Assembly: GCA_011040095.1 (NCBI GenBank)
Contig: DRDE01000177.1
Span: forward strand, 1 to 53,393
DNA: 53,393 nucleotides
Source of the DNA: Nitrospirota bacterium
GTDB lineage: Bacteria > Nitrospirota > Thermodesulfovibrionia > UBA6902
Reading direction: 5' to 3'
Shown piece by piece: positions 10,669 to 27,918 of the stretch. Position 1 is the stretch's first letter; the number at the start of each line of letters is the position of its first letter. Position numbers and translations under genes: made by a program. Below the pieces are notes generated by a model, which searched no databases, had not been told where the DNA came from, and worked only from the letters and a program-made list of their open reading frames with translations.

Positions 10669-10715
10669 TCCATTGATTAGCACAGGGACGGTAATGATAT
10701 AATGTATAAGTCGAG

Positions 10716-12014: not shown

Positions 12015-12031
12015 AAAGGAATTAAGACCCT

Positions 12032-13180: not shown

Positions 13181-13191
13181 AAATCATTGAA

Positions 13192-13479
13192 TCAGGAAGC
13201 AAAAATCTTTTTATTTATAAAATCAGCAAGTGTATTAATGGATTTAAGAACCTGGCGGGAAGTGTTGATGTCCCTTATGCGAACCTTGTATTTCTTTTCC
13301 AGGGCAACCACTATTTCCACGGCATCAAGTGAATCTATACCTAATGGCGAAGAGGGATCAATCAGGGGTTCATCATCCTTAATATGATCCGCAGTAATAC
13401 CTACTTCCTGCAGATTGCAGGTCTCGACAACCAGCTCTTTCAATTCACTTTTCAAGGATTTTATTGCCTGCTCACTCAT
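13192..13479 (-). CDS. Acyl carrier protein
   Basis: LGIDSLDAVEIVVALE phosphopantetheine-attachment motif. I prefer the second ATG (AGGA 7 nt upstream); the ORF track extends to 13497. Confidence 0.85.
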   Translation of the reverse strand: MSEQAIKSLKSELKELVVETCNLQEVGITADHIKDDEPLIDPSSPLGIDSLDAVEIVVALEKKYKVRIRDINTSRQVLKSINTLADFINKKIFAS

Positions 13480-13570
13480 AGTTGATTCCTGCTGCATTGT
13501 AAAGGTTTTGCGGCAGGCTCACCTGCCTTATTTATGCAAGATAATATCGCCTGTAATAAATATTCAAAAT

Positions 13571-14854
13571 TCAAACAAGCTTGGAGCGTAAACCGGAAAT
13601 GAACATCGTTAAAACAAAAAAGCTCAGAAGTTTTATTGCATTCGGCAAAATCACAAGAAGATTACCATCCCTGAGAAAAATGTCCAGGAAACCTTTAAGC
13701 CCCCATGAAAGAGGAGATATCACACTTATTTTTTGCATAAATTCCGGCATAACAAAGACAGGCACCATAACACCTCCCAAGGCGGCGGCGACAACAACAG
13801 AAATTGCCCCGAATGTTGACGCCTGCTCCTGTGTACCGGCCACAGTTCCAAGCATTACACCAAAACCGGCAGCAGCAAGCCCCGAGCTGAGAGCTATTAA
13901 CACCATTGCCGGATAATTAGATCCCATTACCAGTATTTCCGTGCCAAGCGCGGGCAGGATAAATATGCCGACTAAAAGCATTAAGACAGACTGTATCATA
14001 CATATGCATAAATATACAATTATTTTCCCCAGTATATGCGTGGGATAAGATACCGGCATAGTCCTCAACCTGAGGAAGATTCCATCTTTACTTTCTTTAA
14101 TCATGTTTCCTGCCAGGGGAATCGCTATGAGAAAAATTGCGAACATGGTCCAGGCCGGAACATTTTGCTGTACGGCATTAGGGGTAATACTTAAACTCTC
14201 CGGAACAGCATAGATTTCCCTGATTTTAACCAGAGGCTCACGGTAATTCTTTTTCTCTTCTTTTTTTGTCTCTCTTCCATTCCCTGAAAACTCTCTCGAT
14301 ATAACATCGAGGACAGATCTCTTTTCAATGTTTGCAGCAAAACCATTCAGGGAGCTTATAATCGAATTTTGAAATGATTTTCGAACAGCAGGATCAAGGT
14401 AAACCTCAATCTCCAGTGGTTGAGAATCTTCTTTAGAATTTTTACTCGTTGACTCTGAACCCTGGAAAATTGTTTTTTTAACCATCTCTATGGCTTTTTC
14501 CTGAATTTTTCTGCTCGCCCCCTCAGGAACTATAATCCCTATCTGAAAATCTCCCTTTGAGACCTTTTCCCTGAGGATTTTTTCATCCACTTCTTTTCCA
14601 TGTATCTTTTTTGTTAAAGAAAAATTTCCTGCTTCATTCAAACCTCTCTCAAGCGACAAACCGAAAGTCCCCCGGTCATTATCAAGATAAATCAATTTGA
14701 TTTCCGTTTCTTTGACTGCCCTGAACGCGCTGTCCTGGACGAGGGTGACTACCAAAACGAGAACCATGGGCATTATAAAAAGTACGCCCAGGCCCGCCTT
14801 GTCTCTGAACAGAATCAGAAACTCTTTCTTAACGGTTGATAATAGCCTGAACAT
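13571..14854 (-). CDS. ABC-2-type transporter permease
   Basis: 427 aa. One N-terminal TM helix, a large soluble loop, then five or six C-terminal TM segments. Lies 3 nt downstream of the ATPase gene. Confidence 0.8.
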   Translation of the reverse strand: MFRLLSTVKKEFLILFRDKAGLGVLFIMPMVLVLVVTLVQDSAFRAVKETEIKLIYLDNDRGTFGLSLERGLNEAGNFSLTKKIHGKEVDEKILREKVSKGDFQIGIIVPEGASRKIQEKAIEMVKKTIFQGSESTSKNSKEDSQPLEIEVYLDPAVRKSFQNSIISSLNGFAANIEKRSVLDVISREFSGNGRETKKEEKKNYREPLVKIREIYAVPESLSITPNAVQQNVPAWTMFAIFLIAIPLAGNMIKESKDGIFLRLRTMPVSYPTHILGKIIVYLCICMIQSVLMLLVGIFILPALGTEILVMGSNYPAMVLIALSSGLAAAGFGVMLGTVAGTQEQASTFGAISVVVAAALGGVMVPVFVMPEFMQKISVISPLSWGLKGFLDIFLRDGNLLVILPNAIKLLSFFVLTMFISGLRSKLV

Positions 14855-14857
14855 TCC

Positions 14858-15616
14858 CTAATCTCTCAATTCCTTTCCGGTCAAATTAAGAAAAAAATCT
14901 TCAAGCCTGTTAAATTTACTTCCATCCCCTAACAGGTCCCCAGGGGTTCCTTCTGTTAATATCCTTCCGTTGTCCATTATCGCAATACGCGAACACAGGT
15001 TCTCCGCTTCCTCAAGATAGTGCGTAGTATAGATTATTGTAGTATCGCGATTGCCTGTATCCATTAGATATTCCAATATAACATTGCGGGATTGTACGTC
15101 AATGCCGACCGTAGGCTCGTCAAGAATCAGTACCCTGGGTTTATGAAGAACTGCCGCAATCAGGTTGGTTCTTCTTTTCATTCCACCTGAAAAGGTCGAT
15201 ATCTTTCTATCGGCGTTCTTCTCAAGTCCAAGCAGCTCCAGACATTCATCGATACGCTTTTCCAGATATTTCCCTCTGAACCCGTACATATTACCGAAAA
15301 ACCTCAGATTCTCTCTCGCTGTTAATGAAGAATAAAGGGCCAGGTCCTGGGGGACAACGCCAATGACTTTCTTTATTTCAGCTAAATGCTTTTCAATATT
15401 AACCCCAAAGAACTCAACACTTCCCTTTGATTGTTTCAGCAGTCCGCAAAGAACAGATATAGTCGTAGTTTTCCCCGCGCCATTCGGACCCAGGAGTCCG
15501 TACCTTTCACCACTTTCAATTGCAAATGAAATATTATTAATTGCAGGTTCTTTACTTCCCTCGTATTTTTTGGTTAGTTCTGAAATCTTATAAGCTTGTT
15601 TATTGAAATCGAACAT
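14858..15616 (-). CDS. ABC transporter ATP-binding protein
   Basis: Walker A GPNGAGKTTT, signature FSGGMKRR, Walker B LILDEPTVGID. Confidence 0.92.
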   Translation of the reverse strand: MFDFNKQAYKISELTKKYEGSKEPAINNISFAIESGERYGLLGPNGAGKTTTISVLCGLLKQSKGSVEFFGVNIEKHLAEIKKVIGVVPQDLALYSSLTARENLRFFGNMYGFRGKYLEKRIDECLELLGLEKNADRKISTFSGGMKRRTNLIAAVLHKPRVLILDEPTVGIDVQSRNVILEYLMDTGNRDTTIIYTTHYLEEAENLCSRIAIMDNGRILTEGTPGDLLGDGSKFNRLEDFFLNLTGKELRD

Positions 15617-16618
15617 TCAAAATAAAATCTTTTTAAGTTCCTTAAATATATTTTCTTCCATATTTGAACATTCTGTCAAAATACCGGCCAGTTTGCCGTA
15701 AAGTTCAGGAGAGACTTCATTATTCTTACAGCTTCTTGCCGAAGCAAGAGCAAACTCCCGCCATTTATCCCCGACTATGGTCATATCTTCAGACAGACCC
15801 GACATTGATTTAAGATTCAAAAACCCGGATGCTTCCTGTAGAAAAGAAGAAAACATAAAACGAAAACCGGCCCCACCAGTGCCAATCTCTTCCTGCATCC
15901 GGATTACCTGTCCCAAATAAAGCAATGCCTTTTTACTGCCAAGCTTATCCGGCCATTTTTTCATATGCCGTGCCAGATAACGTATCCCCTTAACACCGAC
16001 CATGGGAAATGGTATGGATAACATATTTTTTACGGTCACTTTAATCCCTTTCCGGATCGCTTTATTAAACTCAATTCTTTCAGGGATTTTCTCAATATAA
16101 TACATCCGCCCCTTCGGAGCCAGAGGACCCTTTGCAAATCTGACTCTCATCAGATCATCGTATGAACATCTGACAGGAGTTTCCATAACAGGATCGCTTA
16201 TCAGATATTCCCCGTTTTCTTTTCCGTATACAACAATATTATGGGCATTAAAATGAAACCGGTAAGAAGGGGGAAAATACGGGAGCCAATAAACGCCGAC
16301 CTGAAGGCCCACAGGAGATCCCCTTTCAATTATTGTGTCAATATCCGCCATGGCTTTTGAGGGATATCTATATCTCAGGCTTCTGACTTTGATGCCAAGT
16401 CGTTTTGTTGCTGATTTAAAAACATATCCGGGAGTATATCTGAATGTTGTAAGAGGCAAATAATTTACTTTTACAAAAGGCAAATAAGCAAAAAACAAAC
16501 CGGACCCGATTCCGAATACCATTGCTTCACTCAAATCAACACCATGATATTTTAAAAGGCTGGAAGTAACCCCACTCTCGCAATGGGCTGACTGTTTATG
16601 CTGAAAATCTATATTCAT
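15617..16618 (-). CDS. BtrH-N/DUF4872-like protein (cysteine-peptidase-fold acyl-ACP transferase family)
   Basis: The N-terminus FQHKQSAHCESGVTSSLLKYHGVDLSEAMVFGIGSGLFFAY matches the butirosin BtrH N-terminal domain pattern as I recall it. I prefer the start MNIDF at 16618. Confidence 0.65.
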   Translation of the reverse strand: MNIDFQHKQSAHCESGVTSSLLKYHGVDLSEAMVFGIGSGLFFAYLPFVKVNYLPLTTFRYTPGYVFKSATKRLGIKVRSLRYRYPSKAMADIDTIIERGSPVGLQVGVYWLPYFPPSYRFHFNAHNIVVYGKENGEYLISDPVMETPVRCSYDDLMRVRFAKGPLAPKGRMYYIEKIPERIEFNKAIRKGIKVTVKNMLSIPFPMVGVKGIRYLARHMKKWPDKLGSKKALLYLGQVIRMQEEIGTGGAGFRFMFSSFLQEASGFLNLKSMSGLSEDMTIVGDKWREFALASARSCKNNEVSPELYGKLAGILTECSNMEENIFKELKKILF

Positions 16619-16625
16619 AATATCT

Positions 16626-17141
16626 CTAACGCACCTCTTTAAGTTCATCCACGGTTAATGAAAATACTTTCGCGTAATGCTCCAATATAGAATCATCAAG
16701 CTTATCAAAACATTCGGGATTCAGGTGTTTTTTTATTTTTCTTTTTGAAAAACCTGCATAATCCGAAAGCAGTTTTAAATCCATTTGATGTCTGGCCATA
16801 TAATAAGCTATCGGGCTCAGCTCACCTCTCAGCACCTTTTTCTTTACATCATTAGCCTTCTCTTCAATAAGCTCCCAGGCCTGGGCGTTCACTATCTGTT
16901 TGGCTTTCCATCCGGTGCTCCTGACGGTAGTATAGTTACCGCTCTCATCAACAGCATAACAGAGCTCTCTGCACTCACTCATCATTTTGCTTTTATCCTG
17001 GGGTACCTCGTTTTTTTTCAAAACCAATCTCCATTCTTCGAGCGTAAAATTAAAACAATATGCAGGAAAGAGTTCAGGGATGCTTGATTGATCATATTTC
17101 AAATGCAGGGATGCAAAGCGGAATGCAGGCTTCGGGGTCAA
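16626..17141 (-). CDS. Hypothetical protein with a possible C-terminal HTH-like region
   Basis: 171-aa ORF. Its TTG start overlaps the ACP stop (TTGA at 17138-17141); an internal ATG (MMSECREL) is an alternative. No family recognised. Confidence 0.45.
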   Translation of the reverse strand: MTPKPAFRFASLHLKYDQSSIPELFPAYCFNFTLEEWRLVLKKNEVPQDKSKMMSECRELCYAVDESGNYTTVRSTGWKAKQIVNAQAWELIEEKANDVKKKVLRGELSPIAYYMARHQMDLKLLSDYAGFSKRKIKKHLNPECFDKLDDSILEHYAKVFSLTVDELKEVR

Positions 17142-17419
17142 TCTTTTCTTTTTTCATATACGTATTTTGCGAGGGTGTCTATGGAGTGGAATACGTCTTT
17201 CCTGTTTTCTATATCCTTAACATCTAATCCGAAATTGCGCTGTAAAATGACGACAATCTCAACGGCATCCAGGGAATCGAGCCCCAGTCCCTCACCGAAT
17301 AAAATTTCATCATCTTTTATATCATCAGGAGTAATATCTTCAAGCGACAAATCTTTTACAAGCAGCGCTTTCAAGGCGCTCTTTATATCCGCCAACTCTT
17401 CTTCATTGATTTCTTGCAT
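17138..17419 (-). CDS. Acyl carrier protein
   Basis: 93 aa with the LGLDSLDAVEIVVILQ motif. Confidence 0.9.
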   Translation of the reverse strand: MQEINEEELADIKSALKALLVKDLSLEDITPDDIKDDEILFGEGLGLDSLDAVEIVVILQRNFGLDVKDIENRKDVFHSIDTLAKYVYEKRKD

Positions 17420-17487: not shown

Positions 17488-18375
17488 TCATTCTCCCTCC
17501 CCTTCCCAAATATCACTAAAGACAAACCATTGAAAAGGATATTGAACAGCATACTCTTCCAGAATGCGGGCGAATTGCTGAACAAGCGCCCTGATTTCCT
17601 CCTCTTTCCCGGATTTTGAACTGCACCGGGGTGTTATAACATGAGAGACATCAATGATATATTTTCTGCTGGAGACCTTGGCTGGCAGTAGAACGACAAC
17701 AGAGCATTTAAGGGCAGTTGCGATGCTGAATGCGCCTACAGGCAAATTCGCCTTTCCACCCAGCAAAGAGACCCGGGCTGAATTATGTCCGTAACTGCGG
17801 TCTCCCATTATCGAAACAATATTGCCCTCATCGATTACTTTTAAGATTTCAAGTATCCCGCCAAGAAATTTCTCAGGGGAAATGATTTTTGCTTTATCTT
17901 TTTCGTTTCCGATATTCAACGTGTTTTTTACCGCGGCATTTTCTTCGGGCGTCATTAATAAATACACTGTTTTATTTAATTTTTTCAGGGCCGTCATTGA
18001 AGCCTGCCAGTTGCCGACATGGGCGGTAAGCAGGATAAATCCCTTTTGGGAATTACTCAAAAGGCTTTTTATCCTGTCATAACCCCGAAGCTCAACATCA
18101 AATTGGCCAAGTCCTGCAACATGGTAATATCTGTCAATCAGGTTTTTGCCCTGGCTGACAAATAACTTATAAACAGCGCAGATCCTCCGGAAGATGTTAT
18201 ACGATCTGAAACGCCTCTTCACATATGTCATGGCGGTGGATACTGCATGACGGTCAAAGATCAGGTAATACAGGCAGACCGGGTAGAGCAGCGCATATGC
18301 CCCTGAAAGGCCGAATAATTTGAGTGATGTCCGGAAAAACCAGAATCCCGCTCTGTTGCCTCTTTTTTTACCCAT
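17488..18375 (-). CDS. LpxL/HtrB-family (lipid A biosynthesis-type) acyltransferase
   Basis: 295 aa. N-terminal TM region and LLTAHVGNWQ, the HxGNWE-type motif of lauroyl/myristoyl acyltransferases. Confidence 0.75.
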   Translation of the reverse strand: MGKKRGNRAGFWFFRTSLKLFGLSGAYALLYPVCLYYLIFDRHAVSTAMTYVKRRFRSYNIFRRICAVYKLFVSQGKNLIDRYYHVAGLGQFDVELRGYDRIKSLLSNSQKGFILLTAHVGNWQASMTALKKLNKTVYLLMTPEENAAVKNTLNIGNEKDKAKIISPEKFLGGILEILKVIDEGNIVSIMGDRSYGHNSARVSLLGGKANLPVGAFSIATALKCSVVVLLPAKVSSRKYIIDVSHVITPRCSSKSGKEEEIRALVQQFARILEEYAVQYPFQWFVFSDIWEGEGE

Positions 18376-19555
18376 TGACGACGATATGTCTCTTTTTTAT
18401 CAGTACCGCTGAAAAGAAAGTAACAGCGGCTATCAGTACGGCCCCTATCGGCGCTATGATCAGGGAGCCCAGCAGCCATTCCACCAGCCGCTCCGGGAAC
18501 TGGGAAAAAACGGTCTCAAAAGATACATTTGTCAGCCACTCTCCGTGTCTCATGAAATAACCGACTTCAATGCATAATGCGGGCACAAAGGGCGGAGCAC
18601 AGATATGCTGCACATTAACAGCGACGATTTTATTCAGGTTTAACCGGGTGGCAACATACAGGATGATTATCGTATGCACAAACAACAAAGGAAGAATGGC
18701 AAAAAAAATGCCTACGGCAGCAGCGGCCGCAAGTCCCGCAGGTGTTACATTTTCCCTCAGCAGCATTTTAAGTAACCTGAGGGGATGCCGCAGTATCCGC
18801 AAATCTGGCTTTTTCTTCTCCACAAACCTGTTGTGTTTTATCGGCAGGAGCCGCTGTCCGATCAGCATGGCATGGGTACGTGAAATGCGAAGGTTGTCTA
18901 TGAAAGGCCTGAAGCTGGAAACTCTCTTGCCGGGTTCAGGGTAAACGACACCTATTTCAACGGTCTTTAGAGTCAAACCCGCCCATGCAGCCTTTGCCAG
19001 CACATCTGCTTCAAAATCATAATGTGCACCCCTGAGCTTCATCCTGTTAAGATACCTGACCGGGTAGGCCCGGAATCCGCTCTGGCAGTCATCAATATAT
19101 ATTCCTGTTTCGATGCGAAGCCAGAAATTTGCAAATTCCCTGCCGAAGCGGCTTTTCCCCGGCACGTTTTCCGTATCAAAATCCCTGGAGCCGATTATTA
19201 TGGCCGGATCATTATCATCCAGCAGGGGAATAAATTTTTCAATATCCGCGGGATTGTGCTGTCCGTCCGCATCAATAGTTATCATAAAGCGCCCGCCCTG
19301 CTCTTCAATATACCTTGAAGCCGTAAGAATGGCCCTGCCTTTTCCAATATTTGTTTCGTGCCTGAGCACCACAACATCCGTTCCGGACAGGAGGGAAGCC
19401 ACGTCCGCATCCGTGCTGCCGTCGTCCACAACAACCACGTTTTTAATAATGGAGCGGCACCCCGCTGCTACACCGGCAACAGTATCCCTGTTATTGTAGA
19501 CAGGGACCGCACACCAGACATACTGCTGCAATTCCGGAGAGTTACTTTGCAGCAT
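18368..19555 (-). CDS. Family 2 glycosyltransferase fused to a C-terminal multi-pass membrane domain
   Basis: VPVYNNRDT...VVVDDGSTD...TIDADGQH is the GT2 core. The last ~130 aa are hydrophobic (LAAAAAVGIFFAILPLLF...) and look DUF2062-like. Confidence 0.85.
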   Translation of the reverse strand: MLQSNSPELQQYVWCAVPVYNNRDTVAGVAAGCRSIIKNVVVVDDGSTDADVASLLSGTDVVVLRHETNIGKGRAILTASRYIEEQGGRFMITIDADGQHNPADIEKFIPLLDDNDPAIIIGSRDFDTENVPGKSRFGREFANFWLRIETGIYIDDCQSGFRAYPVRYLNRMKLRGAHYDFEADVLAKAAWAGLTLKTVEIGVVYPEPGKRVSSFRPFIDNLRISRTHAMLIGQRLLPIKHNRFVEKKKPDLRILRHPLRLLKMLLRENVTPAGLAAAAAVGIFFAILPLLFVHTIIILYVATRLNLNKIVAVNVQHICAPPFVPALCIEVGYFMRHGEWLTNVSFETVFSQFPERLVEWLLGSLIIAPIGAVLIAAVTFFSAVLIKKRHIVVNG

Positions 19556-20912
19556 ACCGTTTTCTCACCGGATGTTTTTTGCCGGGAAGCATCAGGTTCC
19601 ACAATGTGCCCGCGTATCCCATTTGATGGAGGGCCATTATAGTGTTGTCATAGGCGTCAGGAGGAAAGATACAGTTTTCTGTTTTTGAAAAAGCCTCATT
19701 CAAGGTATTCTCCAGCCAGTTTTTATCGGTTCCGGGGGAGATATAATAAACCGGCTTGAGCAGATCCTTGCCGGCAGGGATGACCTTTTCTCTTATCGCT
19801 ATGGCGGCAAGAGGAGTGGCAGGCAGAATTCTGATACCCATAAAAATAAAAACAACACATTTTTTTAAGCTTATGATGTTCTTTATTCCCTCTGATACGG
19901 TTTCTTTTGTCTCTCCCGGACCGCCGAACATGTAAAAATGCGATACGGCAATTTCATGCCTCCCGAATAAATCATTACATTTCCCGATCTCCTCAAAGGT
20001 AAAACCCTTGCCGAGTTTTTTCAGTGTTTCATTGGTGGAGGCATCAGCGCCGATTTCAACAGCGGCAAGACCTGTCTGCTTCATCATTTCAACAACCTTG
20101 TCATTTAACCCTGCCGGCTTGAAAAATCCTGTCCAGGGTATGCTCACTTTACGTCTTGCCATTTCCCCCAATAAATCAAGGTAAGCGCCTTCATCGTCAT
20201 TAAATACCGAATCCACGAAGAAGATATATTTTGCCTTATGCTTCCGTGAAAGCAGTTCAATATCATCAACAACCGAACGCGGGTCCCTCTGGCGGATTTT
20301 AGAGCCTTCCAGAACCGGGTATGTGCAGTACACACATTCGCGGGTACATCCCCGTTTGGTTTGTATGGAGGCCATATTTCCGCTGCGCAGATAAAATTCA
20401 ATCAGCCGGTCATCATATTTTGCCGGAACAAAGTCACATCCCGGGAGCCTGCTGCCGGATCCGATAATACGCTCTTCCGGGAATATTCCTTTAGCCGCGT
20501 TACCGGCAAACTCGACCATCAGTGATTCACCTTCCCCGGTAATTCCGTAATCAGCGCCTGTCGTTTGCATGATTAAATCGGGAACAAGAGAAAACCCCGA
20601 TCCTCCCAGAATTATTTTTATATCCGAAACTTCCCTTATTTTGTTTGCTATATCCCTGACAGTATCGATGTAATATTTTTCGTTTACAATATTGACATTG
20701 TCGATATTACGGATGGAAATGCCGGTCAAACCCGGTTGAAAATTTTTAATCTCCTCTCCAAGCGCATCTAATGAACTATTTTCCCGGAGGAAATCAAATT
20801 GCCTTACCTCGTGACCGGCAGCAGTCAGAGCTGCTGCAATTATACTGGCTCCCAGAGGATAGACAGGGTATGGCGACACGGATGTATTGGATGAAATCAG
20901 CAATATCTTCAT
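19542..20912 (-). CDS. Cobalamin-binding-domain (class B) radical SAM enzyme
   Basis: I prefer the start MKILLISSNT at 20910-20912, which overlaps the upstream stop as ATGA. B12-type N-terminal domain, then TKRGCTRECVYC (CX3CX2C). Confidence 0.9.
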   Translation of the reverse strand: MKILLISSNTSVSPYPVYPLGASIIAAALTAAGHEVRQFDFLRENSSLDALGEEIKNFQPGLTGISIRNIDNVNIVNEKYYIDTVRDIANKIREVSDIKIILGGSGFSLVPDLIMQTTGADYGITGEGESLMVEFAGNAAKGIFPEERIIGSGSRLPGCDFVPAKYDDRLIEFYLRSGNMASIQTKRGCTRECVYCTYPVLEGSKIRQRDPRSVVDDIELLSRKHKAKYIFFVDSVFNDDEGAYLDLLGEMARRKVSIPWTGFFKPAGLNDKVVEMMKQTGLAAVEIGADASTNETLKKLGKGFTFEEIGKCNDLFGRHEIAVSHFYMFGGPGETKETVSEGIKNIISLKKCVVFIFMGIRILPATPLAAIAIREKVIPAGKDLLKPVYYISPGTDKNWLENTLNEAFSKTENCIFPPDAYDNTIMALHQMGYAGTLWNLMLPGKKHPVRKRYAAK

Positions 20913-22180
20913 GGCTGCTTCCAGGCCCTGTTGCGGGATGTCCAATTTTTCCTGCCTGACCGGTTTCTTCCGGGCGTGAAGTCGTTTCTTTCTTTTTTCA
21001 TTACGTTCATGAACAGTTTTGCCATCTTGACTTCCCGGCTTTCTTTGACGTAAAAAGTATCCCACGCGTAATAAAACATCTCCTGCAATTTGTCCACACT
21101 CATCTTTGCCGGCCTGAATACAACTTCTCCGCTTGTATATCGCGACCAGTCATTATGTAAAATCCTGTTCTCCTTCTCCAGTACCTCCCTGATGGGAGTA
21201 TGCGGAAAGGGAGTCAGCACTGTAAATTCGGCCAGGTCCAGTTCGATCTCAACAAGGAAATCCACGAGCCGCTTTATATAATCTTCGTCATGATCGTCCA
21301 TCCCCAGGATAATCGTCCCCTCGACACCGATCCCGCGCTCCTTCAGCCTTCTCACCCTCTGTCTTATGTGATCCGATGTATCCATAATCGCCTGGTATAC
21401 ATACCAGCAGCCGGCCTCTGCCGCAAGGTCCAGTATCTCATCATCATCTTTGATAGGGTGAGATATCCATTTCTTATTCAACGGGATTAATGCCCTGAAT
21501 AATTCCTTTTCCCATTCATCATCCTGGGCAAGGGAATTATCAACAAAAAACAGGCGGCCGTTGTCTATCTGCTCCAGCTCTTCAACAACCGATTTAATAT
21601 TCCTGGGCCTGAAATTACGCCCCCCCAGATAAGGAGTGCAGCATGGGAAACAGTTGAACCTGCAGCCGCGGGAAGCGTGAACAAGGTCAACCATCTGTAC
21701 CCCTCTGTAATTGTACAAATCACGACTCAGGATGCTCCGCCTGGCTGGACCGATCAGGTCCATATCAGGATAATTATGCATGTAGTCATATACCTTCTTT
21801 AACCCTTTATTATTCAGGTCATTAATAATTTCTTCAAAACGTCCCTCGACCTCGCCGAGAAATACCGAATCCGCATGATCCAGGGTTTCCTCATGATGCA
21901 GCATTGCGGCAATACCGCCGAAAATGACCGGAATGCCCATATTCCTGAAACGGTCCGCAATCTCCCATGCGCGTGGAATCTGGCAGGTAAGCAAAACGGA
22001 TATGGCTACCATGTCGGCATCCGGACTAAAGTCAATCTCCTGCACGTTTTCATCGAAAAAAACAACCTCGACTTCGCCGGGGATTGCGGCCGCCACACAA
22101 ACAGGGGCGTGCGGGGGCAGATGAAATTCCGTCTGCCTGCTCAGTTTCGGCCACAGTGGATAAACAAATTTTATTTTCAC
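20909..22180 (-). CDS. Cobalamin-binding-domain (class B) radical SAM enzyme
   Basis: 423 aa (GTG start). KIKFVYPLW...DMVAISVLL...IFGGIAA, then ASRGCRFNCFPC (CX3CX2C). Confidence 0.9.
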   Translation of the reverse strand: MKIKFVYPLWPKLSRQTEFHLPPHAPVCVAAAIPGEVEVVFFDENVQEIDFSPDADMVAISVLLTCQIPRAWEIADRFRNMGIPVIFGGIAAMLHHEETLDHADSVFLGEVEGRFEEIINDLNNKGLKKVYDYMHNYPDMDLIGPARRSILSRDLYNYRGVQMVDLVHASRGCRFNCFPCCTPYLGGRNFRPRNIKSVVEELEQIDNGRLFFVDNSLAQDDEWEKELFRALIPLNKKWISHPIKDDDEILDLAAEAGCWYVYQAIMDTSDHIRQRVRRLKERGIGVEGTIILGMDDHDEDYIKRLVDFLVEIELDLAEFTVLTPFPHTPIREVLEKENRILHNDWSRYTSGEVVFRPAKMSVDKLQEMFYYAWDTFYVKESREVKMAKLFMNVMKKERNDFTPGRNRSGRKNWTSRNRAWKQP

Positions 22181-22842
22181 TATTGGTTCTCGCCTTTCCC
22201 GAGGACTGAAAATTCTTTCAGCATTTCATCCAATGCCCGGCTCCCTCTTAATATTGACATTGCCGTCTCAACATTACACAAAACATCCTGTCCTGAACCG
22301 GAATCTTTCTTTAGAACAAAATAAACCGCTTCCTCTTCCCTGCTCATTCCGGCGAGCATTACAGTCGATTCATCAAGAAGGATCATTTCAGCGGCGGTCT
22401 CTATCACAGGCAACAGGGAATTATCCGATGCAGCGATATAGAGCAGCGGCCCCTGCAGCCCGAAACGTATCGCGGCCTCGCCCAGCGGGCTTGTCGGCAG
22501 GGTATAAATAAAAAGATTCCCTCTTGATGATGTCCGGTTGCTGTCTATGTAGTCCATGAAATAATTAATATCGGTTTCAAGAGAGCCCCGACTATTGGTC
22601 CCTATAACCCCGATGTCCTGTTTCCGGTTCTGCGAATATTCAATCCCTGCATCTTTCAGCGCAAGGGCGGCTGCATAGCAGGTTATCCTGGAGGCATTGT
22701 CTATTCGTCCGAAGTTCTTATAAGAAGAGGTAAATATTTCTTTTTTTAAACGTGACTTATCATCATATGCAATCCTGATATTTCTCAGAATACAGCCATA
22801 TTCCGCTTTATTAATCCATCCTATGCCATTGACGGTAACCAT
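22180..22842 (-). CDS. Short KS-N-terminal-like protein without a catalytic Cys (chain-length-factor-like partner)
   Basis: 220 aa. Aligns to the N-terminal half of a KS (…ITCYAAALALKDAGI…GPLLYIAASDNSL…). No ACSS Cys and no C-terminal His motifs. Lies 8 nt after the KS gene. Confidence 0.7.
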   Translation of the reverse strand: MVTVNGIGWINKAEYGCILRNIRIAYDDKSRLKKEIFTSSYKNFGRIDNASRITCYAAALALKDAGIEYSQNRKQDIGVIGTNSRGSLETDINYFMDYIDSNRTSSRGNLFIYTLPTSPLGEAAIRFGLQGPLLYIAASDNSLLPVIETAAEMILLDESTVMLAGMSREEEAVYFVLKKDSGSGQDVLCNVETAMSILRGSRALDEMLKEFSVLGKGENQ

Positions 22843-22850
22843 ATCTTAAT

Positions 22851-23972
22851 CTATTTATGACAAATCAACGCTGCGTTTATTCCTCCGAATCCTGCACTGG
22901 TTATAAGAGCCATTTTCTCTTTATCTACACTGCGGGACCCGGATGATACCCACGCCTGAGCGTCTTCTTCACAATCTTTAAGATTGACTGTCGGAGGGAC
23001 TGTCTCCTCTTTCAGGCCCCTCAGGGCTATTATCATTTCAACAAGACCTGCTGCTCCCATTGTGTGGCCTATAGCTCCTTTTATTGAATATACAGGTGGT
23101 TTGTTATTGAAAATTGCATCAAATGCCTTAATCTCCATAGCATCGTTATAAACTGTGCCGGTTCCGTGTGCAGAGATTAAACCGATGGAGTTCTGGTCAA
23201 TGCCTGCATTCTTTAAGGCTTTTTTTATAGCCAGCACCCTTCCCGCACTGTCACTTGAGGGTCTTGTCATGTGATAGGCATCGTCACTCAGTCCCCAGCC
23301 TGTTATCCTGCCCACGATTTCCCTTTTTTCCTGTTTTGCCCTTTCTTCACTCATTACCAGTGCAAATGCCGCTGCTTCCCCTATGGTTAATCCGTTTCTG
23401 TTTTTGTCGAAAGGCCTGGCGCCGGATTTGTCCAGCGCCATTAATGCAGAGAAACCTGAAAAAAGAAATTCCGTTACGCTGTCGCATGCAACTACCAGCG
23501 CACAGTCACAGTGTTCCTCCCGGATCATTGCCGCAGCCCTGGCCACGGCCGCTGTAGAGGAAGCGCAGGCAGCAGAGACGATTATCCCCCGGTCTTCAAC
23601 ACCGGTAATATCCGCGACTTTTTTAAGCAGATGCCCCAGATTACAGCTTGATGCATCTCCGGTACCCTGAAGAAGCGATTTTTCGAGCAGGTCGATCTCT
23701 CCTTTTATTGTTGCCATCATAAGCCTTGCATCTCTTGGTATCGGGACCGGGACACTGTCAAACAGGGACCTCAGCATCTGCATAACAAGAGATTCTTTCC
23801 GGAGATATTCCAGGTTATCAACCGTGGCCGCACAATCGGCATGGAAGGCGTTTGTATTAAATCTGCCGAGCCTGGAGATAGCGGTTTGACCGGACATGAT
23901 GCCGTCCCAGCACGCATCTGCGCCCAATCCATAAGGTGTTACCATATTACATGAAACAACAACTGCTCTCAT
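22851..23972 (-). CDS. Beta-ketoacyl-ACP synthase, catalytically complete
   Basis: 373 aa. Motifs: IIVSAACASSTAAV (Cys), ISAHGTGTVYND (His), GHTMGAAG (His). Confidence 0.9.
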   Translation of the reverse strand: MRAVVVSCNMVTPYGLGADACWDGIMSGQTAISRLGRFNTNAFHADCAATVDNLEYLRKESLVMQMLRSLFDSVPVPIPRDARLMMATIKGEIDLLEKSLLQGTGDASSCNLGHLLKKVADITGVEDRGIIVSAACASSTAAVARAAAMIREEHCDCALVVACDSVTEFLFSGFSALMALDKSGARPFDKNRNGLTIGEAAAFALVMSEERAKQEKREIVGRITGWGLSDDAYHMTRPSSDSAGRVLAIKKALKNAGIDQNSIGLISAHGTGTVYNDAMEIKAFDAIFNNKPPVYSIKGAIGHTMGAAGLVEMIIALRGLKEETVPPTVNLKDCEEDAQAWVSSGSRSVDKEKMALITSAGFGGINAALICHK

Positions 23973-23995: not shown

Positions 23996-24487
23996 TTACT
24001 TTTTAAGTTGACCGAAATCTCCTGCCTTCCACCTTCTGCGGCATTTTTCCAGCAGGGCAGGAGACGTCAGGCTGACCTCACCGGATTTTACATCAATAAA
24101 CAACTGCACGGTATAACCGCTGGCTGCAAGGCTTCCGTCATTTTTTAATATAAAGTATTCAGTATTCAGGCGCGCCCCCTCATCCCATACTAAAACGGTC
24201 CGGATCGTAAACTCCTCGTCAAGCCGCAGCGGCCTGTGAAAATCAACATGATATTTGACAAGGGGGGCGCGTAATTCCGCCTCCTGAAAATCCTTGTACG
24301 ACAGGCCGCACTGTCTGCCCAGCGCCTCTGCCCCCTCTTCAAAATAAGCCGTGTATCTTCCGTACCATACAAATGCCATAAGGTCTATTTCGCTGAAGTG
24401 AACCCGCCTTTTAATTTCAACGACAATCGGATCAGGCCCATCCTCATGCCGTTTGAAATATGCTCCTCTCCCCCGCTTATTTTTCAT
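23996..24487 (-). CDS. Hotdog-fold thioesterase (4HBT/YbgC-like)
   Basis: VHFSEIDLMAFVWYGRYTAYFEEG is a typical 4HBT N-terminal motif. I prefer the ATG at 24485-24487 (GGGAGA upstream) over the TTG at 24502. Confidence 0.8.
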   Translation of the reverse strand: MKNKRGRGAYFKRHEDGPDPIVVEIKRRVHFSEIDLMAFVWYGRYTAYFEEGAEALGRQCGLSYKDFQEAELRAPLVKYHVDFHRPLRLDEEFTIRTVLVWDEGARLNTEYFILKNDGSLAASGYTVQLFIDVKSGEVSLTSPALLEKCRRRWKAGDFGQLKK

Positions 24488-24869
24488 TTGTCTCCCGCTC
24501 AAACCTGACCCTTAATTTCACTTCGGCAATTTTCCTGCCGTCTTTGTTAAAGAATGCTTTAAGGGTGATATCCCTGTCCGGGGCATTAATGATATTACAG
24601 GCACACATCACTTTTTCCAACGGGGAAACAGGTGACAGGAATTTTGCCAGGACAACTTCTTTCAGCACGACGCGCTTTTTTCCCCATTTCTCAAGCATAT
24701 TCAAGACGCATTGTATCTGACAGATACCCGGCAATATCTTGTTGCCCGGAAAGTGTCCCTGAAAGCCTATAAAATCCTCCGGAAATACAAAGCAGGCATT
24801 AAGGCCCCCGTTTTCAGCCGCCTGAAAGTCCGACATGCACTCTGCAATTGCCTTTTTGATATTTTTCAA
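24477..24869 (-). CDS. FabZ/FabA-like 3-hydroxyacyl-ACP dehydratase (hotdog fold)
   Basis: 130 aa with the catalytic His motif FQGHFPGNKILPGICQIQ. The TTG start overlaps the upstream stop (TTGA). Confidence 0.8.
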   Translation of the reverse strand: MKNIKKAIAECMSDFQAAENGGLNACFVFPEDFIGFQGHFPGNKILPGICQIQCVLNMLEKWGKKRVVLKEVVLAKFLSPVSPLEKVMCACNIINAPDRDITLKAFFNKDGRKIAEVKLRVRFERETNEK

Positions 24870-25528
24870 TTCAGGATTTCCTTTAACCTGAGTGTAACAG
24901 TGTATCCATAGAGAAAATCATTAAAGATGATGCCCCCGGGGTATATCCCGCCGGCCTTTTCTTTATACTCATAATAAGAGACCCTCCATTTTAAATGATT
25001 GTTTTCGTAATAGTTTTTTTTTACCAGGTAGGCGTCCGCACCGGCAAACACATACTCTGTAGCTCCCGGACCTGATTCAAGCCTGAAGACAATCTCATAT
25101 TTTTTTCTTTTTACCGTCGCTGAGAGCGGAGGAGCCAAATCAAAATAAATCCGTTGTATGTCTTCTCCGATTATACCGGCAAAGGCTTCTTTATGTGGGA
25201 ATTCACCCGTCACAGAGTATCCGTCCATCCCCTCCCTGTTGCCGGACAATTCAAACAGTTTCATGCCTGTCGGGTTGAGGCAGGCAGCAGCATATGTCCC
25301 CGCCGTGGTGTTTATATCAATAACCCCCAGACATGAAAACTTTTTCCAGTTATACTCCACGACCATTGTATTAATTATCCGTATATATTCAGGTATGTTA
25401 TTTTTGTACCGTTCAGCAACGGCTGCAGGATCTTCATGGTCAATAGGGACGTAACCGGTTTCTTTAAACGGTATGCTGCTGCACCCTGCAATAAATAACA
25501 CGACAATAAGGCCAATTATTAACCGCAT
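24866..25528 (-). CDS. Lipoprotein (DUF3261-like position in ape-type clusters)
   Basis: MRLIIGLIVVLFIAGCSS signal peptide and lipobox. Sits directly after the MMPL exporter, as in aryl-polyene clusters. Confidence 0.65.
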   Translation of the reverse strand: MRLIIGLIVVLFIAGCSSIPFKETGYVPIDHEDPAAVAERYKNNIPEYIRIINTMVVEYNWKKFSCLGVIDINTTAGTYAAACLNPTGMKLFELSGNREGMDGYSVTGEFPHKEAFAGIIGEDIQRIYFDLAPPLSATVKRKKYEIVFRLESGPGATEYVFAGADAYLVKKNYYENNHLKWRVSYYEYKEKAGGIYPGGIIFNDFLYGYTVTLRLKEILN

Positions 25529-27918
25529 TGTTCTTTCTCTGCCTGAGCAGGTAAAATTTTCATCAGAGACGGAATAATAAAAATAGCAGAAATATATCCT
25601 GCCAGCACACCCATGAACAGGGTTATCCCGCTGGAAAACAATGCAGGATGTTTGGTAAAAAGCAAAACTCCCGCTCCGATAAGGGTAGTGACAGCAGAAA
25701 TCGAGATTGATAGTATAGCATTTTTTCTTAAATTATGCTGATAGTTATAGGTCATAAATATGCCGTAATCAATGCAAAGCCCCATTACGACTATGCCGGC
25801 AAACAGGTTTGCGATATTCAATGTAATGCCGGACAGGTACATAAAACCCATGAGCCATAAAACGCTTGTAAGCACCGGCACCAGTGCGATCAGCGCCCTC
25901 CTGAGATTCTTCAGGAATAAAAGAGTCAGCAAAACAATAAATGATGAGGCAATTACCGTCAAATATTTCGCTTCCGAAGAAGTGGAAGCGGATATGGACC
26001 GGGACAACAGCTTGCGTGATACCAGGAATGTTCCCGGATAATTTCCGATCAATTCAGATAATGCATCCACATATTTCTTCTCATCAGGGAAGAACGACAG
26101 TATCCTCACACCGTCTTCTCTTTCCCGGACAAATCTTTCTTTAAAAACCAGGGGAATATTATCATCGCCCGTTCCATTATTCACGGATGTGTCCGGATAT
26201 AAATTATCAAAGAACGGAGAAAATGCGGACGCGGAGAACCGGTACCCTGCTCCCTCTTCTTTTATCAGCCTTCTCAGCTTTTCTTCCCTGCCCTGTCTCC
26301 AGAACTCTTTCCATCTGTTCAGTTTTTTCAGCCGTGTTTTTTTCGAGGGCCATATTACGGCAAGACTCGAAAAATTTTCAGCGCCCACGGCTTTAACGGC
26401 ATCCTGATATATCCTGTCGTTCATTTCAAGCGCCTCTTCATAACTCTTTCCCGGTACGACAAAAAAAGCGCGATTGCCTTCATCTCCCCATGTCTTCCTG
26501 AAGTTTTCTTCTGCCTGCAAAACCGCCGGTTCGCTCCCGTCCAATTGCTGAATATTACTGTCAAACCTTACATTGAAAGCCATAAAGAAAGTTACACAAA
26601 CAGAAAAGACCCAGAGCACGGCAATCAGTTTATGATACCTGTTGGGACCTTTGTGCGATGCTTCCGGGGCTGAAGTAAAATTAAATGAAGGGCCTTTCGT
26701 TGATAATAAATGAGGCAGAATAAAAAGGGCTGATAAAAGCGACAGCGAAATGCTCAGAACCGAGAGAAAGGCGAGCTGATGATAACCCGGTGTCCTGGAG
26801 AAGAATAATGCGAAAAAAATACCTGATGTTGTCAGAGCGCCCATGCATACCGGCTTTGCTATGTGATTGATAACATGCGCTTCCCGTCCGTTGTTGCGGA
26901 CTGCTACATATATATGGATGCCGTAATCCACTGCTATGCCTGCGATCACGGTGCCCAGGCCGATTACCCATAAAGAAAGTCTTCCCATGAAGATGCCTGA
27001 CAGGCTGATTGATATAAGAACCGCTGCCGAGGGGATAAGGAAAATATATATGGCCCTGATGTCGCGAAAGACAACAAGAAATAATAGCAGGAAACCGGCT
27101 GCAGCAATGATAACGGCCAGGCGGATATCGTGTTTGATTACCTTTTCATTACTTATGGTGTGCAAATGCGCGCTTATGATGTCGGCGGAAATAAAATCGG
27201 GCAGGCGTGCTATTTTTTCATTCAGGGCAGTCAGAAGCTCTCTGGAGCCGGAGGCATCCGTCACCCGGACGGGTGTCTGTGTAATAACCATGGTATGTCG
27301 CCCGTCTCTGCTGATAAAATGCCCGTCTTCCATATTGACGTTATATTCCGTGAATGCTTTCAGTGTGTTCAGTTTGTCAAGCAGGAGAAGTCTGAGCCCG
27401 AGGGGATCGGAGTAAATCATTGATGACATGAAAATGCTTTGGGGACTTAACATCTGCCTGTAAATTCCCCGGAGTCTTTCGGAGATACTGTCCGGGTTTA
27501 TCAGGCTGTCAATGAATGACAGTTCTTCTTCGGTAATTACCCGGGGAATGTAATCAGAAAAAAAAATCCCGTCCATTATGTCCATACCCTGAAAGCCTGT
27601 GATTGTTTTTGTAAACAAGGGCGGGTTCAGAGAAGCGCTTAATTGTTCCGCTGCCCGGAAAAGATCTTTCCTGTTTTTCTCTTTTGAATTAAGGCCGAGG
27701 GAAATAACAATTTTATCGGAAAAATTGGAGTCCCTGAAGAAATCAATATTGCGCCTGATATTTATATCGTCCGGGAGCATTAATTCGACGCTGCCGTCGA
27801 ATTTGTCAAAAAAAAATCCGATACCGGAAGCTGCTATTAAAAATATGGCTGCCGCGAATACCGGAAGTCTCCTGTTTTTCACGAAATCATAAATGAGTGG
27901 AAAATATTTATCGAACAC
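25519..27918 (-). CDS. MMPL/RND-superfamily lipid exporter
   Basis: 799 aa (GTG start). Two repeats, each a large soluble loop plus a 5-6 TM bundle. Confidence 0.8.
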   Translation of the reverse strand: MFDKYFPLIYDFVKNRRLPVFAAAIFLIAASGIGFFFDKFDGSVELMLPDDINIRRNIDFFRDSNFSDKIVISLGLNSKEKNRKDLFRAAEQLSASLNPPLFTKTITGFQGMDIMDGIFFSDYIPRVITEEELSFIDSLINPDSISERLRGIYRQMLSPQSIFMSSMIYSDPLGLRLLLLDKLNTLKAFTEYNVNMEDGHFISRDGRHTMVITQTPVRVTDASGSRELLTALNEKIARLPDFISADIISAHLHTISNEKVIKHDIRLAVIIAAAGFLLLFLVVFRDIRAIYIFLIPSAAVLISISLSGIFMGRLSLWVIGLGTVIAGIAVDYGIHIYVAVRNNGREAHVINHIAKPVCMGALTTSGIFFALFFSRTPGYHQLAFLSVLSISLSLLSALFILPHLLSTKGPSFNFTSAPEASHKGPNRYHKLIAVLWVFSVCVTFFMAFNVRFDSNIQQLDGSEPAVLQAEENFRKTWGDEGNRAFFVVPGKSYEEALEMNDRIYQDAVKAVGAENFSSLAVIWPSKKTRLKKLNRWKEFWRQGREEKLRRLIKEEGAGYRFSASAFSPFFDNLYPDTSVNNGTGDDNIPLVFKERFVREREDGVRILSFFPDEKKYVDALSELIGNYPGTFLVSRKLLSRSISASTSSEAKYLTVIASSFIVLLTLLFLKNLRRALIALVPVLTSVLWLMGFMYLSGITLNIANLFAGIVVMGLCIDYGIFMTYNYQHNLRKNAILSISISAVTTLIGAGVLLFTKHPALFSSGITLFMGVLAGYISAIFIIPSLMKILPAQAEKEQCG

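Follow-up and report, generated by a model that had tools for sequence, protein, structure and literature searches.

What do two dissimilar radical S-adenosylmethionine (SAM) enzymes, encoded side by side between a ketosynthase (KS) gene with its partner and a family 2 glycosyltransferase (GT2) gene, contribute to the pathway around them? The question is raised by a contig of a Nitrospirota bacterium (GenBank assembly GCA_011040095.1, contig DRDE01000177.1), whose 53,393 nucleotides we refer to as the window. The two genes, called rSAM-1 and rSAM-2 here, span 19542-22180 on the minus strand:

20909..22180, minus: rSAM-1, 423 amino acids, GTG start
19542..20912, minus: rSAM-2, 456 amino acids, ATG start at 20912

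A sequence-only reading had taken both for cobalamin-type (class B) radical SAM enzymes in a plain fatty-acid context that would give a noncanonical acyl chain. That context did not hold. Judged by their predicted products, the approximately 29 kb around the pair are a cluster of the aryl-polyene/flexirubin type that also carries genes for export and anchoring and a putative dialkylresorcinol module. Tentatively, we favor the reading that the pair is a conserved two-enzyme tailoring module in the aryl-polyene (flexirubin/xanthomonadin-type) pathway of anaerobes, a lipid-pigment pathway resembling type II fatty acid synthase (FAS)/polyketide synthase systems. For the chemistry, we lean toward an oxygen-independent modification of a carrier-bound polyene intermediate, with C-methylation the likeliest form.

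The two genes form a translationally coupled tandem

The open reading frames (ORFs) and the sequence itself bore out the tandem of coupled, dissimilar genes that had been described, including all three of its overlaps. The G of the rSAM-1 GTG is also the last base of the upstream TAG (...CAA TAG / GTG AAA...), a 1-nucleotide overlap at 22180; the rSAM-2 ATG lies inside an ATGA overlap (20912..20909) with the end of rSAM-1; and the GT2 gene (18368..19555) overlaps rSAM-2 by 14 nucleotides. The mechanically derived rSAM-2 ORF extends back to a GTG at 21065, within rSAM-1. We placed the start at 20912 because the 120 listed homologues are 452 to 467 amino acids long, mostly exactly 456, and because independent gene calls on contigs with identical sequence give the same length (220, 423, 456, and 395 amino acids for the successive genes, with the same overlaps). 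The two proteins are also not recent duplicates of each other, as had been stated: BLASTP aligned them at 25% identity over 204 amino acids, and alignment of their families with hhalign gave a probability of 97% at 24% identity.

A scan of one genome per species for rSAM-1 returned relatives in at least 582 species-level genomes. The best 80, which are 64 to 77% identical to rSAM-1, were analyzed, and the window proteins were mapped onto their loci by tblastn. Of the 69 loci with enough downstream sequence, 66 have rSAM-2 immediately after rSAM-1, and therefore the tandem is not a chance arrangement. In 64 of 75 loci, the gene that immediately precedes rSAM-1 resembles a chain length factor (CLF). 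Between 17 and 25 kb of the window, promoter-like and terminator-like sites were no more numerous than in shuffled sequence, which fits a single operon. An Rfam scan of the window gave a tRNA as its sole match, with no cobalamin riboswitch or other RNA element. We conclude that the two genes are genuine, run in the same direction, and are coupled in translation to the upstream KS/CLF pair and the downstream GT2 gene.

In two metagenome fragments (P0246 and P0126), the C-terminal part of rSAM-1 runs into the N terminus of rSAM-2, as it would in a natural fusion. We did not use these fragments as evidence because their linker and tail look frameshifted, and assembly or sequencing errors are the more likely cause.

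rSAM-2 is a TIGR04072 protein whose nearest characterized relatives are methylases

rSAM-2 carries the motif RGCTRECVYC, in which CTRECVYC is the CX3CX2C signature, and it scores above the gathering thresholds for B12 binding (PF02310, 57.8 bits) and for the radical SAM domain (PF04055, 62.0 bits). Both domains also pass in rSAM-1, so the N-terminal B12-type domain and cysteine motif that had been read in the two proteins were found in each. The sequence-only reading had pointed, with membership left unverified, to an NCBIfam family named for lipid biosynthesis. That family exists, and rSAM-2 matches it at 612.6 bits (cutoff, 360), with residues 2 to 441 aligned to model positions 1 to 441 of 443. 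By this profile match, rSAM-2 belongs over its full length to TIGR04072, "lipid biosynthesis B12-binding/radical SAM protein" (rSAM_ladder_B12); rSAM-1 does not. The neighborhood is likewise of the TIGR04072 type, with KS/CLF, acyl carrier protein (ACP), FabG, dehydratase, and thioesterase genes in the rSAM-2 operon and in related loci, and NCBI and JGI annotation already applies the family name to homologues of rSAM-2. What membership supplies is a label, not a function, since the family has been characterized by annotation only. Our literature search found no functional study of TIGR04072, of lipid-biosynthesis B12-binding proteins, or of aryl polyenes together with radical SAM enzymes.

Searches against the named B12-type radical SAM equivalogs, which had been suggested as a check, placed neither protein in them. 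The two proteins scored 43 and 66 bits for BchE (against 481), 40 and 55 for HpnR (against 650), and 46 and 67 for HpnJ (against 578); both were far below the cutoffs of PhpK, AprD4, KedN5, and the antibiotic methylase families, and HpnP was not among the matches.

The next-best NCBIfam models for rSAM-2 were BzaD (196.5 bits, near full length; cutoff, 450) and TsrM (145.9 bits; cutoff, 500). TsrM was also the best sequence match in the PDB (6wte; E value, 3e-35; 22 to 23% identity), and a Foldseek search with an AlphaFold2 (AF2) model of rSAM-2 (pLDDT, 74) returned TsrM with cobalamin at the top (E value, 5e-23; TMq, 0.75). The two relatives are aromatic Csp2 methylases: TsrM is a tryptophan 2-C-methyltransferase, and the activity of BzaD is predicted only (PMC12931638). 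In TsrM, R69 lies beneath the corrin, E236 lies between the corrin and the cluster, and E273 is the fourth ligand of the [4Fe-4S] cluster (PMC12931638). In a HMMER alignment to 6wte, R69 is kept in rSAM-2 (ISIRNID) and E273 and E236 are replaced by Val and Tyr, respectively, leaving R69 as the one residue of the TsrM-type nonradical set. The exchange of E273 for Val would open the iron site, which suggests ordinary reductive cleavage of SAM and not the nonradical route of TsrM. rSAM-2 would then bind cobalamin as TsrM does, with an open iron site. TsrM (6WTE/6WTF) and BzaD are thus the nearest characterized relatives of rSAM-2 by sequence and by fold, and the corrin arginine is kept. However, the scores lie far under both family cutoffs, the E273-based mechanism of TsrM is not kept, and the contexts differ, being thiopeptide or cobamide synthesis for TsrM and BzaD and a lipid or polyene for rSAM-2.

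rSAM-1 forms an unnamed orthogroup with a predicted B12-type domain

rSAM-1 has a B12-binding-like Rossmann domain at its N terminus, followed by a radical SAM core with the motif RGCRFNCFPC (C173-x3-C177-x2-C180), whose cysteines are invariant in 40 homologues. Its Pfam scores are marginal (PF02310, 34.8 bits with a cutoff of 32.1; PF04055, 31.9 bits with a cutoff of 29.5). No curated NCBIfam family includes it; the best model was TIGR04013 (61 bits; cutoff, 251), and TIGR04072 matched at 53.1 bits (cutoff, 360) over a partial stretch only. The orthologues that are 64 to 77% identical come from about ten phyla of anaerobes, and among representatives clustered at 50% identity, only two full-length relatives exceed 50% identity before values fall to 40% or less. 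On this evidence, rSAM-1 is a single tight, unnamed orthogroup inside a very large, diffuse superfamily. Superfamily members at 35 to 38% identity sit in unrelated neighborhoods, and the link to KS/CLF genes is therefore a property of the orthogroup.

We considered an auxiliary Fe-S cluster in rSAM-1, given that C28, C66, C181, and C258 are invariant in close homologues and that MiaB and RimO are among the fold matches. We rejected this idea because all four cysteines are replaced in an orthologue with 63% identity (P0121).

An AF2 model of rSAM-1 (pLDDT, 79.5; pTM, 0.80) had AprD4 as its top Foldseek match (6fd2; E value, 4e-18; TMq, 0.74; 17 to 18% identity). Further matches were MgmA (9CCB; TMq, 0.61), MiaB, and, at approximately 0.6, TsrM and CysS, the TsrM entry having been solved with cobalamin. 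AprD4 is reportedly a radical SAM 1,2-diol dehydratase whose B12-like domain holds no cobalamin. Cobalamin is used by MgmA, TsrM, and CysS but not by MiaB. With one leading match that lacks cobalamin and another that depends on it, the fold matches cannot decide the cofactor of rSAM-1. The marginal Pfam score and the AprD4 match make cobalamin binding doubtful; from sequence and model, cobalamin use by rSAM-1 is plausible and predicted, not established. The class B label given to both proteins is thus secure for rSAM-2, by its predicted TsrM-like fold, but only nominal for rSAM-1. AprD4 and MgmA share with rSAM-1 the N-terminal Rossmann domain, the radical SAM barrel, and the C-terminal helical part; they differ in sequence (17 to 18% identity) and in having substrates, an aminoglycoside and a protein glutamine, that are unrelated to a lipid context.

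These matches raise the alternative that rSAM-1 is a cobalamin-independent, AprD4-type enzyme that carries out a dehydration or redox-neutral rearrangement on a polar head group, a sugar or glycerol handled by the adjacent GT2 and acyltransferases, with only rSAM-2 acting on the acyl chain. rSAM-1 does score on the AprD4 family model (E value, 4.8e-08) and on the PDB AprD4 sequence (E value, 0.0002), its Pfam B12-binding score is barely over threshold, and in one related locus (L017) it adjoins an acyltransferase, away from rSAM-2. AprD4 itself has been classed as unrelated to the true B12-dependent enzymes (PMC12931638). However, the sequence match to AprD4 covers the radical SAM barrel and not the N-terminal domain, which by sequence is nearest to the MJ_1487 and MgmA families, the latter a cobalamin-dependent methylase. 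Furthermore, rSAM-1 is coupled to the KS/CLF pair and not to the GT2 gene in the 64 of 75 loci noted above, and no AprD3-like reductase partner is present. We regard this alternative as quite improbable.

The surrounding genes point to an aryl-polyene pathway

The operon extends from 36077 to 6657 on the minus strand. Its genes are given below in operon order; rSAM-1 and rSAM-2 stand between the short CLF-like protein and the GT2 gene, and the dialkylresorcinol module stands between ACP2 and KSc.

35355-36077, minus: FabG/FlxB-like ketoreductase (FlxB, 292 bits, cutoff 340; FabG NF004200, 288.7 bits, cutoff 273)
33760-35259, minus: phytoene-desaturase-family flavoprotein (Pfam)
32513-33766, minus: ketosynthase KSa (PRK09116 KS, 443 bits, cutoff 470)
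32184-32483, minus: ACP of the initiation/elongation block
31416-32165, minus: AGPAT acyltransferase of the initiation/elongation block
30118-31419, minus: FlxY-like aryl/acyl-coenzyme A (CoA) ligase (FlxY, 457 bits, cutoff 520)
28632-30116, minus: SPASM-domain radical SAM protein, AhbD/NirJ-like (AhbD, 156.8 bits, below cutoff)
27908-28684, minus: LolA2-like carrier (LolA2_flexi, 116 bits, cutoff 125)
25519-27918, minus: MMPL/RND exporter (HAE3/MMPL transporter by profile search)
24866-25528, minus: lipoprotein, no family
24477-24869, minus: FabZ/ApeI-like dehydratase (ApeI-like Pfam match on an identical product)
23996-24502, minus: 4HBT thioesterase
22851..23972, minus: ketosynthase KSb, FabF/AmcF-like, 373 amino acids (fabF, 221 bits, and AmcF, 214 bits, both below cutoff)
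22180..22842, minus: short CLF-like protein, 220 amino acids (N-terminal domain of Pfam ketoacyl-synt only, 43.6 bits)
18368..19555, minus: GT2 with C-terminal DUF2062 membrane domain (PF00535, PF09835)
17488..18375, minus: LpxL-type (lipid A biosynthesis family) acyltransferase (PF03279, 60.8 bits)
17138..17419, minus: ACP2 (NF006617, 70.1 bits, cutoff 70)
7724-8899, minus: ketosynthase KSc (NCBIfam)
6657-7727, minus: CLFc (NCBIfam)

A complete aryl-polyene core set is present in this one operon: CoA ligase, KS and CLF, ACPs, ketoreductase, dehydratase, and thioesterase. So is a set for anchoring and export, consisting of the GT2 with DUF2062, Lip_A_acyltrans, AGPAT, LolA2_flexi, and HAE3/MMPL proteins. 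A glycosyltransferase, LolA, acyltransferase, and exporter set is a conserved hallmark of polyene-pigment clusters (PMC3949708), and aryl-polyene, flexirubin, and xanthomonadin-dialkylresorcinol (arcuflavin) clusters have the same architecture as the window cluster (PMC3949708, PMC3992019). In all, the operon has two ACPs, three KSs with two CLF-like partners (that of KSb being the protein directly downstream), and three acyl- or glycosyltransferases. The flexirubin-specific equivalog models fall just under their cutoffs: FlxY, FlxB, and LolA2_flexi as listed, flexirubin DarG at 162.6 of 170 bits, and DarB as well. Only broader models pass, namely, DarG_fam (161.6 bits; cutoff, 70), the StlD/DarB model NF005293 (537.9 bits; cutoff, 450), and FabG NF004200.

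What this anaerobe version has beyond known aryl-polyene and flexirubin clusters is a phytoene-desaturase-like flavoprotein together with three to five radical SAM genes. The SPASM gene at 28632-30116 brings the radical SAM genes of the conserved cluster to three; neither it nor the B12-type radical SAM genes at 9220-12014 in the same cluster were covered by the sequence-only reading. Profile scans of the cluster ORFs found no class I methyltransferase within 6657-36077, and the window has no tyrosine ammonia-lyase (TAL) or chorismate-utilizing starter enzyme (XanB2).

At its low-coordinate end, the cluster is followed by a helix-turn-helix regulator (6234-6569, minus) and an IS1595-family transposase (5254-6180, plus). 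Its high-coordinate boundary is marked by an exonuclease-domain gene, a PilZ-domain gene, and pyruvate phosphate dikinase, with a tRNA, TadA, and gyrA farther on. Approximately 8 kb beyond the cluster (44150-47728, plus), a small separate gene group encodes an O-antigen-ligase-like membrane protein, a class I methyltransferase (45696-46406), and another radical SAM/SPASM protein (46670-47728).

The window cluster holds an inserted, putative dialkylresorcinol module

Between ACP2 and KSc lies a group of genes for which we took the dar names from the Azoarcus dar cluster (PMC3949708):

16626-17141, minus: DarG (DarG_fam, as above)
15617-16648, minus: BtrH/DarE-like protein (BtrH_N, DUF4872)
14858-15616, minus: ABC ATPase
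13571-14854, minus: ABC permease
12032-13180, plus: StlD/DarB ketosynthase (NF005293, as above)
10716-12014, plus: B12-type radical SAM protein, HpnR-like, 432 amino acids (154 bits, no cutoff exceeded)
9220-10668, plus: B12-type radical SAM protein, BchE-like, 482 amino acids (200 bits, no cutoff exceeded)

Measured against the gene order in approximately 50 other genomes, the module (9220..17141) is an insertion between ACP2 (17138-17419) and the KS/CLF pair at 6657-8899. The darG, darE, darF, and darI genes of Azoarcus are matched by the window DarG, BtrH/DarE-like, and two ABC genes. No homologue of the DarA aromatase was found among the cluster ORFs scanned, and both extra B12-type radical SAM genes lie directly upstream of the StlD/DarB ketosynthase. 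This radical SAM pair at 9220-12014 might replace DarA aromatization anaerobically or alkylate the resorcinol. With it, the window cluster holds five radical SAM genes: rSAM-1, rSAM-2, the SPASM gene, and the two additional B12-type genes. In a few Geopsychrobacteraceae and Trichloromonas loci, an orthologue of 9220-10668 lies between rSAM-2 and the GT2 gene, and DarG and BtrH are present.

The presence of this module, with DarB, DarG, DarE-like, and ABC genes but no DarA homologue among the ORFs scanned, would allow rSAM-1 and rSAM-2 to tailor the dialkylresorcinol half of a flexirubin-like ester, by alkyl-chain methylation or anaerobic aromatization, in place of the polyene half. However, rSAM-1 and rSAM-2 are kept in dozens of loci that have no DarG, BtrH, or DarB within reach, and what adjoins the window DarB is the separate B12-type radical SAM pair at 9220-12014. 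This makes a dialkylresorcinol substrate for the pair highly improbable.

The cluster is conserved across anaerobes, and rSAM-1 most of all

The closest relatives of both proteins among the matches listed are in Nitrospirota/Thermodesulfovibrionia metagenome-assembled genomes (MAGs), which makes a Nitrospirota host probable for the window, as opposed to an anammox bacterium. Other hosts among the best 80 matches to rSAM-1 are Desulfobacterota (including MAGs labeled Desulfonema, Pelobacter, Geobacterales, and Geopsychrobacteraceae), Omnitrophota, Elusimicrobia, a Planctomycetia MAG, Acidobacteria, and Spirochaetota, and also Verrucomicrobiota, Kiritimatiellia, and Lentisphaerae, with the cultured Victivallis vadensis DSM 14823. 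Gene order in these loci is nearly invariant and without gaps: AGPAT, CoA ligase, SPASM, LolA, MMPL, lipoprotein, dehydratase, thioesterase, KS, CLF, rSAM-1, rSAM-2, GT2, LpxL-type acyltransferase, ACP, KS, and CLF. The export and processing block (23996..28684 in the window) keeps its order, and in most related loci GT2 follows rSAM-2 and ACP2, KSc, and CLFc are contiguous.

In 63 of 65 loci, no gene other than those for ACPs is as well conserved as rSAM-1, which has a mean identity of 69%, compared with 57% for rSAM-2, 53% for KS, and 44% for CLF; because the loci were picked by similarity to rSAM-1, its rank is somewhat inflated. This conservation is unusual for a tailoring enzyme and could be due to horizontal transfer of the whole cluster or to very strong constraint. 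In V. vadensis, rSAM-1 is 68% identical to the window protein, compared with 39% for rSAM-2 and 38% for KS.

Several loci depart from the common plan. An Acidobacteria MAG (L078) has an rSAM-1 orthologue (66% identity) whose flanking 10 kb in each direction contain none of the other cluster genes, an Elusimicrobia MAG (L043) has the pair in a different gene context, and in the Spirochaetota MAG mentioned above (L017), rSAM-2 is on the opposite strand in an adjacent subcluster. A further Nitrospirota MAG (GCA_016214855.1; L082/L083) has an rSAM-1 relative of approximately 35% identity between Lip_A_acyltrans and SPASM genes, with a B12-type radical SAM gene nearby, which could be a different, smaller lipid-modifying radical SAM set.

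The cluster resembles "ladderane-like" clusters but is unlikely to make ladderanes

Clusters of this kind have been described before. Rattray et al. reported in 2009 that FAS clusters of Kuenenia also encode SAM radical enzymes and homologues of phytoene dehydrogenase, together with a phenylacetyl-CoA ligase, a glycosyltransferase, and a membrane protein, and that these clusters show striking synteny with clusters of Desulfotalea psychrophila, Geobacter, and Pelobacter (PMC2649909). Genome mining has since reported "ladderane" clusters of unclear function in many nonanammox phyla (PMC9902471). The Desulfotalea, Geobacter, and Pelobacter clusters share with the window the combination of FAS, radical SAM, phytoene dehydrogenase, ligase, glycosyltransferase, and membrane protein genes in anaerobes without ladderanes (PMC2649909, PMC9902471). 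They entered our comparison through their published descriptions, and MAGs labeled Pelobacter and Geobacterales carry the pair. The papers that describe them (PMC2649909, PMC9902471) did not single out the rSAM-1 orthogroup, the rSAM-1/rSAM-2 tandem, or the aryl-polyene/dialkylresorcinol nature of the clusters. The window cluster and the "ladderane-like" clusters of Desulfotalea, Geobacter, and Kuenenia (kuste3335-3352) are of one kind.

For Kuenenia, we used the codon-optimized sequences in the supplement of PMC4790861, which give the N-terminal 128 or so codons of each gene. Over these 128 amino acids, kuste3342, the TIGR04072 protein, is 43% identical to rSAM-2. The kuste3343 fragment is 44.5% identical to the window SPASM protein; kuste3344, 3335, 3336, 3340, and 3341 match the window CoA ligase, GT2, flavoprotein, ACP, and FabG, respectively, with ACP2 40% identical to the kuste3340 ACP. 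In contrast to the window, the Kuenenia gene list lacks an rSAM-1 orthologue and includes, in its place, two class I methyltransferases (PMC4790861).

The label rSAM_ladder_B12 and the antiSMASH class "ladderane" suggest that the pair makes ladderane (concatenated cyclobutane) lipids, as do the membership of rSAM-2 in a family named after the Kuenenia candidate cluster and the window counterparts of the SPASM, CoA ligase, GT2, flavoprotein, FabG, and ACP genes of kuste3335-3344. The hosts make ladderane synthesis very unlikely. Ladderanes are known from anammox Planctomycetota only, and D. psychrophila, which has a syntenic cluster, yielded polyunsaturated hydrocarbons and no ladderanes (PMC2649909, PMC9902471), whereas the closest relatives of rSAM-1 and rSAM-2 are in Nitrospirota and about nine other nonanammox phyla. 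Moreover, the kuste3603-3608 cluster ("Cluster I"), with amxACP and amxFabZ, is reported to be exclusive to anammox bacteria that produce ladderanes (PMC10139942). It has no window equivalent; the window does not show the combination of amxACP, amxFabZ, FabF2/FabFmut, and an anammox Planctomycetota genome. The remainder of the window cluster is an export-and-anchor aryl-polyene system. We give a ladderane product of the pair almost no credence.

A stronger alternative is that the pair carries out nonmethylating radical chemistry on the polyene or acyl chain, such as C-C bond formation or cyclization, of the BchE type or of the sort suggested for ladderane rings, desaturation together with the flavoprotein, or cross-linking, so that the carbon skeleton would differ from that of aerobic aryl polyenes. 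Class B enzymes of that kind are well documented (PMC12931638). Apart from its three radical SAM genes and its phytoene-desaturase-family flavoprotein, the conserved cluster is an ordinary aryl-polyene set, and the high conservation of rSAM-1 fits a demanding key step over a decorative one. KS/CLF pairs also adjoin a B12-type radical SAM gene in kuste3605-3608 and kuste2803-2805 of anammox bacteria (PMC4790861; bioRxiv 10.64898/2026.05.19.726425), and the N-terminal fragments of kuste3608 and kuste2803 belong to the broad superfamily of rSAM-1, with 37 to 40% identity to it over 75 to 98 amino acids (37% over 98 amino acids for kuste3608). However, both fragments are closer to other, unrelated superfamily members (41 to 43%), which argues against a special kinship with rSAM-1, and relatives of rSAM-1 at 35 to 38% also occur in unrelated contexts, so that there is no special anammox link. 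In addition, the closest characterized relatives of rSAM-2 are methylases, and a literature search found no report of an unusual cyclic lipid from the cultured hosts. We regard nonmethylating chemistry as possible, though on the unlikely side.

DISCUSSION

Our preferred reading, a two-enzyme tailoring module for a carrier-bound aryl polyene, implies the following pathway. The KS/CLF pair and ACPs would build the polyene on its carrier from an aryl-acid starter activated by the FlxY-like ligase. With cobalamin and a 5'-deoxyadenosyl radical, rSAM-2 would then C-methylate an sp2 carbon, for which the aryl head group is the most plausible site, and so do anaerobically the job of the class I SAM methyltransferase of aerobic flexirubin and aryl-polyene producers. 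rSAM-1 would carry out a second radical step on the same tethered intermediate, for which further C-methylation is our default guess, with its use of cobalamin unproven. Finally, the acyltransferases and GT2 would place the acyl chain on a glyco- or lysolipid anchor, and the LolA and MMPL proteins would export it to the outer membrane.

We favor a methylase role for rSAM-2 because its nearest relatives are aromatic C-methylases, because the ring methyl of flexirubin is derived from methionine (PMC3992019), and because the cluster has no class I methyltransferase. There is also a precedent in CysS (structures 9n1b-d), a B12-type radical SAM methylase that acts on a pantetheine-bound substrate.

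Several points weigh against this reading. Reviews up to 2026 list the "ladderane" B12-type radical SAM enzymes under "unknown transformation" (PMC12931638, PMC13459092), and the literature gives no identified product of this cluster type and no assayed member of either family. Class B enzymes also catalyze the BchE cyclization, the OxsB ring contraction, and other reactions (PMC12931638), and a similarity of 22 to 25% to TsrM does not fix the substrate of rSAM-2. rSAM-1, with its marginal B12 score and AprD4 as the nearest fold, may be no methylase. The aryl starter is deduced from the FlxY/PaaK-like ligase only, and the missing tyrosine ammonia-lyase and chorismate-utilizing enzyme in the window count against it. 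The syntenic Kuenenia cluster pairs its TIGR04072 homologue with two class I methyltransferases (PMC4790861), so TIGR04072 is not everywhere a simple substitute for a class I enzyme. Lastly, the polyunsaturated hydrocarbons found in D. psychrophila were not aryl polyenes, although they were not tied genetically to the cluster (PMC2649909).

A bolder version of the nonmethylating alternative would make rSAM-1 the key catalyst of a new radical step that forms C-C bonds or rearranges the skeleton of the carrier-bound polyene, with rSAM-2 as its obligate partner. We consider this unlikely. If true, anaerobes of many phyla would make undescribed cyclized or cross-linked polyene lipids, and the logic of a KS/CLF pair joined to a B12-type radical SAM enzyme would also underlie the ladderane pathway of anammox bacteria.

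Part of what we describe was already known. TIGR04072 is curated and automatically annotated, and descriptions of the cluster type, which antiSMASH routinely flags, date back to 2009 (PMC2649909). Three points, drawn from comparing sequences, are added here: the unnamed rSAM-1 in obligate tandem with TIGR04072 across about ten phyla, the identity of the predicted "ladderane-like" clusters as aryl-polyene/flexirubin-type systems, and the putative dialkylresorcinol module of the window, with two extra B12-type radical SAM genes where DarA would be expected.

For this window, the result is chiefly a correct annotation, as a flexirubin-like polyene-dialkylresorcinol cluster of an uncultured bacterium sampled in a marine metagenome. 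More broadly, radical SAM chemistry on fatty-acyl and polyketide-type lipids is almost unexplored. Up to 2026, no enzyme of these clusters had a demonstrated role, and ladderane synthesis was unsolved (PMC10139942, PMC13459092, PMC12931638, bioRxiv 10.64898/2026.05.19.726425). The "ladderane" B12-type radical SAM enzymes have gone uncharacterized because a genetic system for anammox bacteria is lacking and work with the enzymes in Escherichia coli was unsuccessful (PMC4790861, PMC10139942). With relatives of rSAM-1 in at least 582 species-level genomes of ordinary anaerobes, among them V. vadensis and relatives of Geobacter and Pelobacter, the pair offers a tractable route to the function of TIGR04072 enzymes, to the real products of nonanammox "ladderane" clusters, and to the O2-free decoration of aryl-polyene-type outer-membrane lipids.

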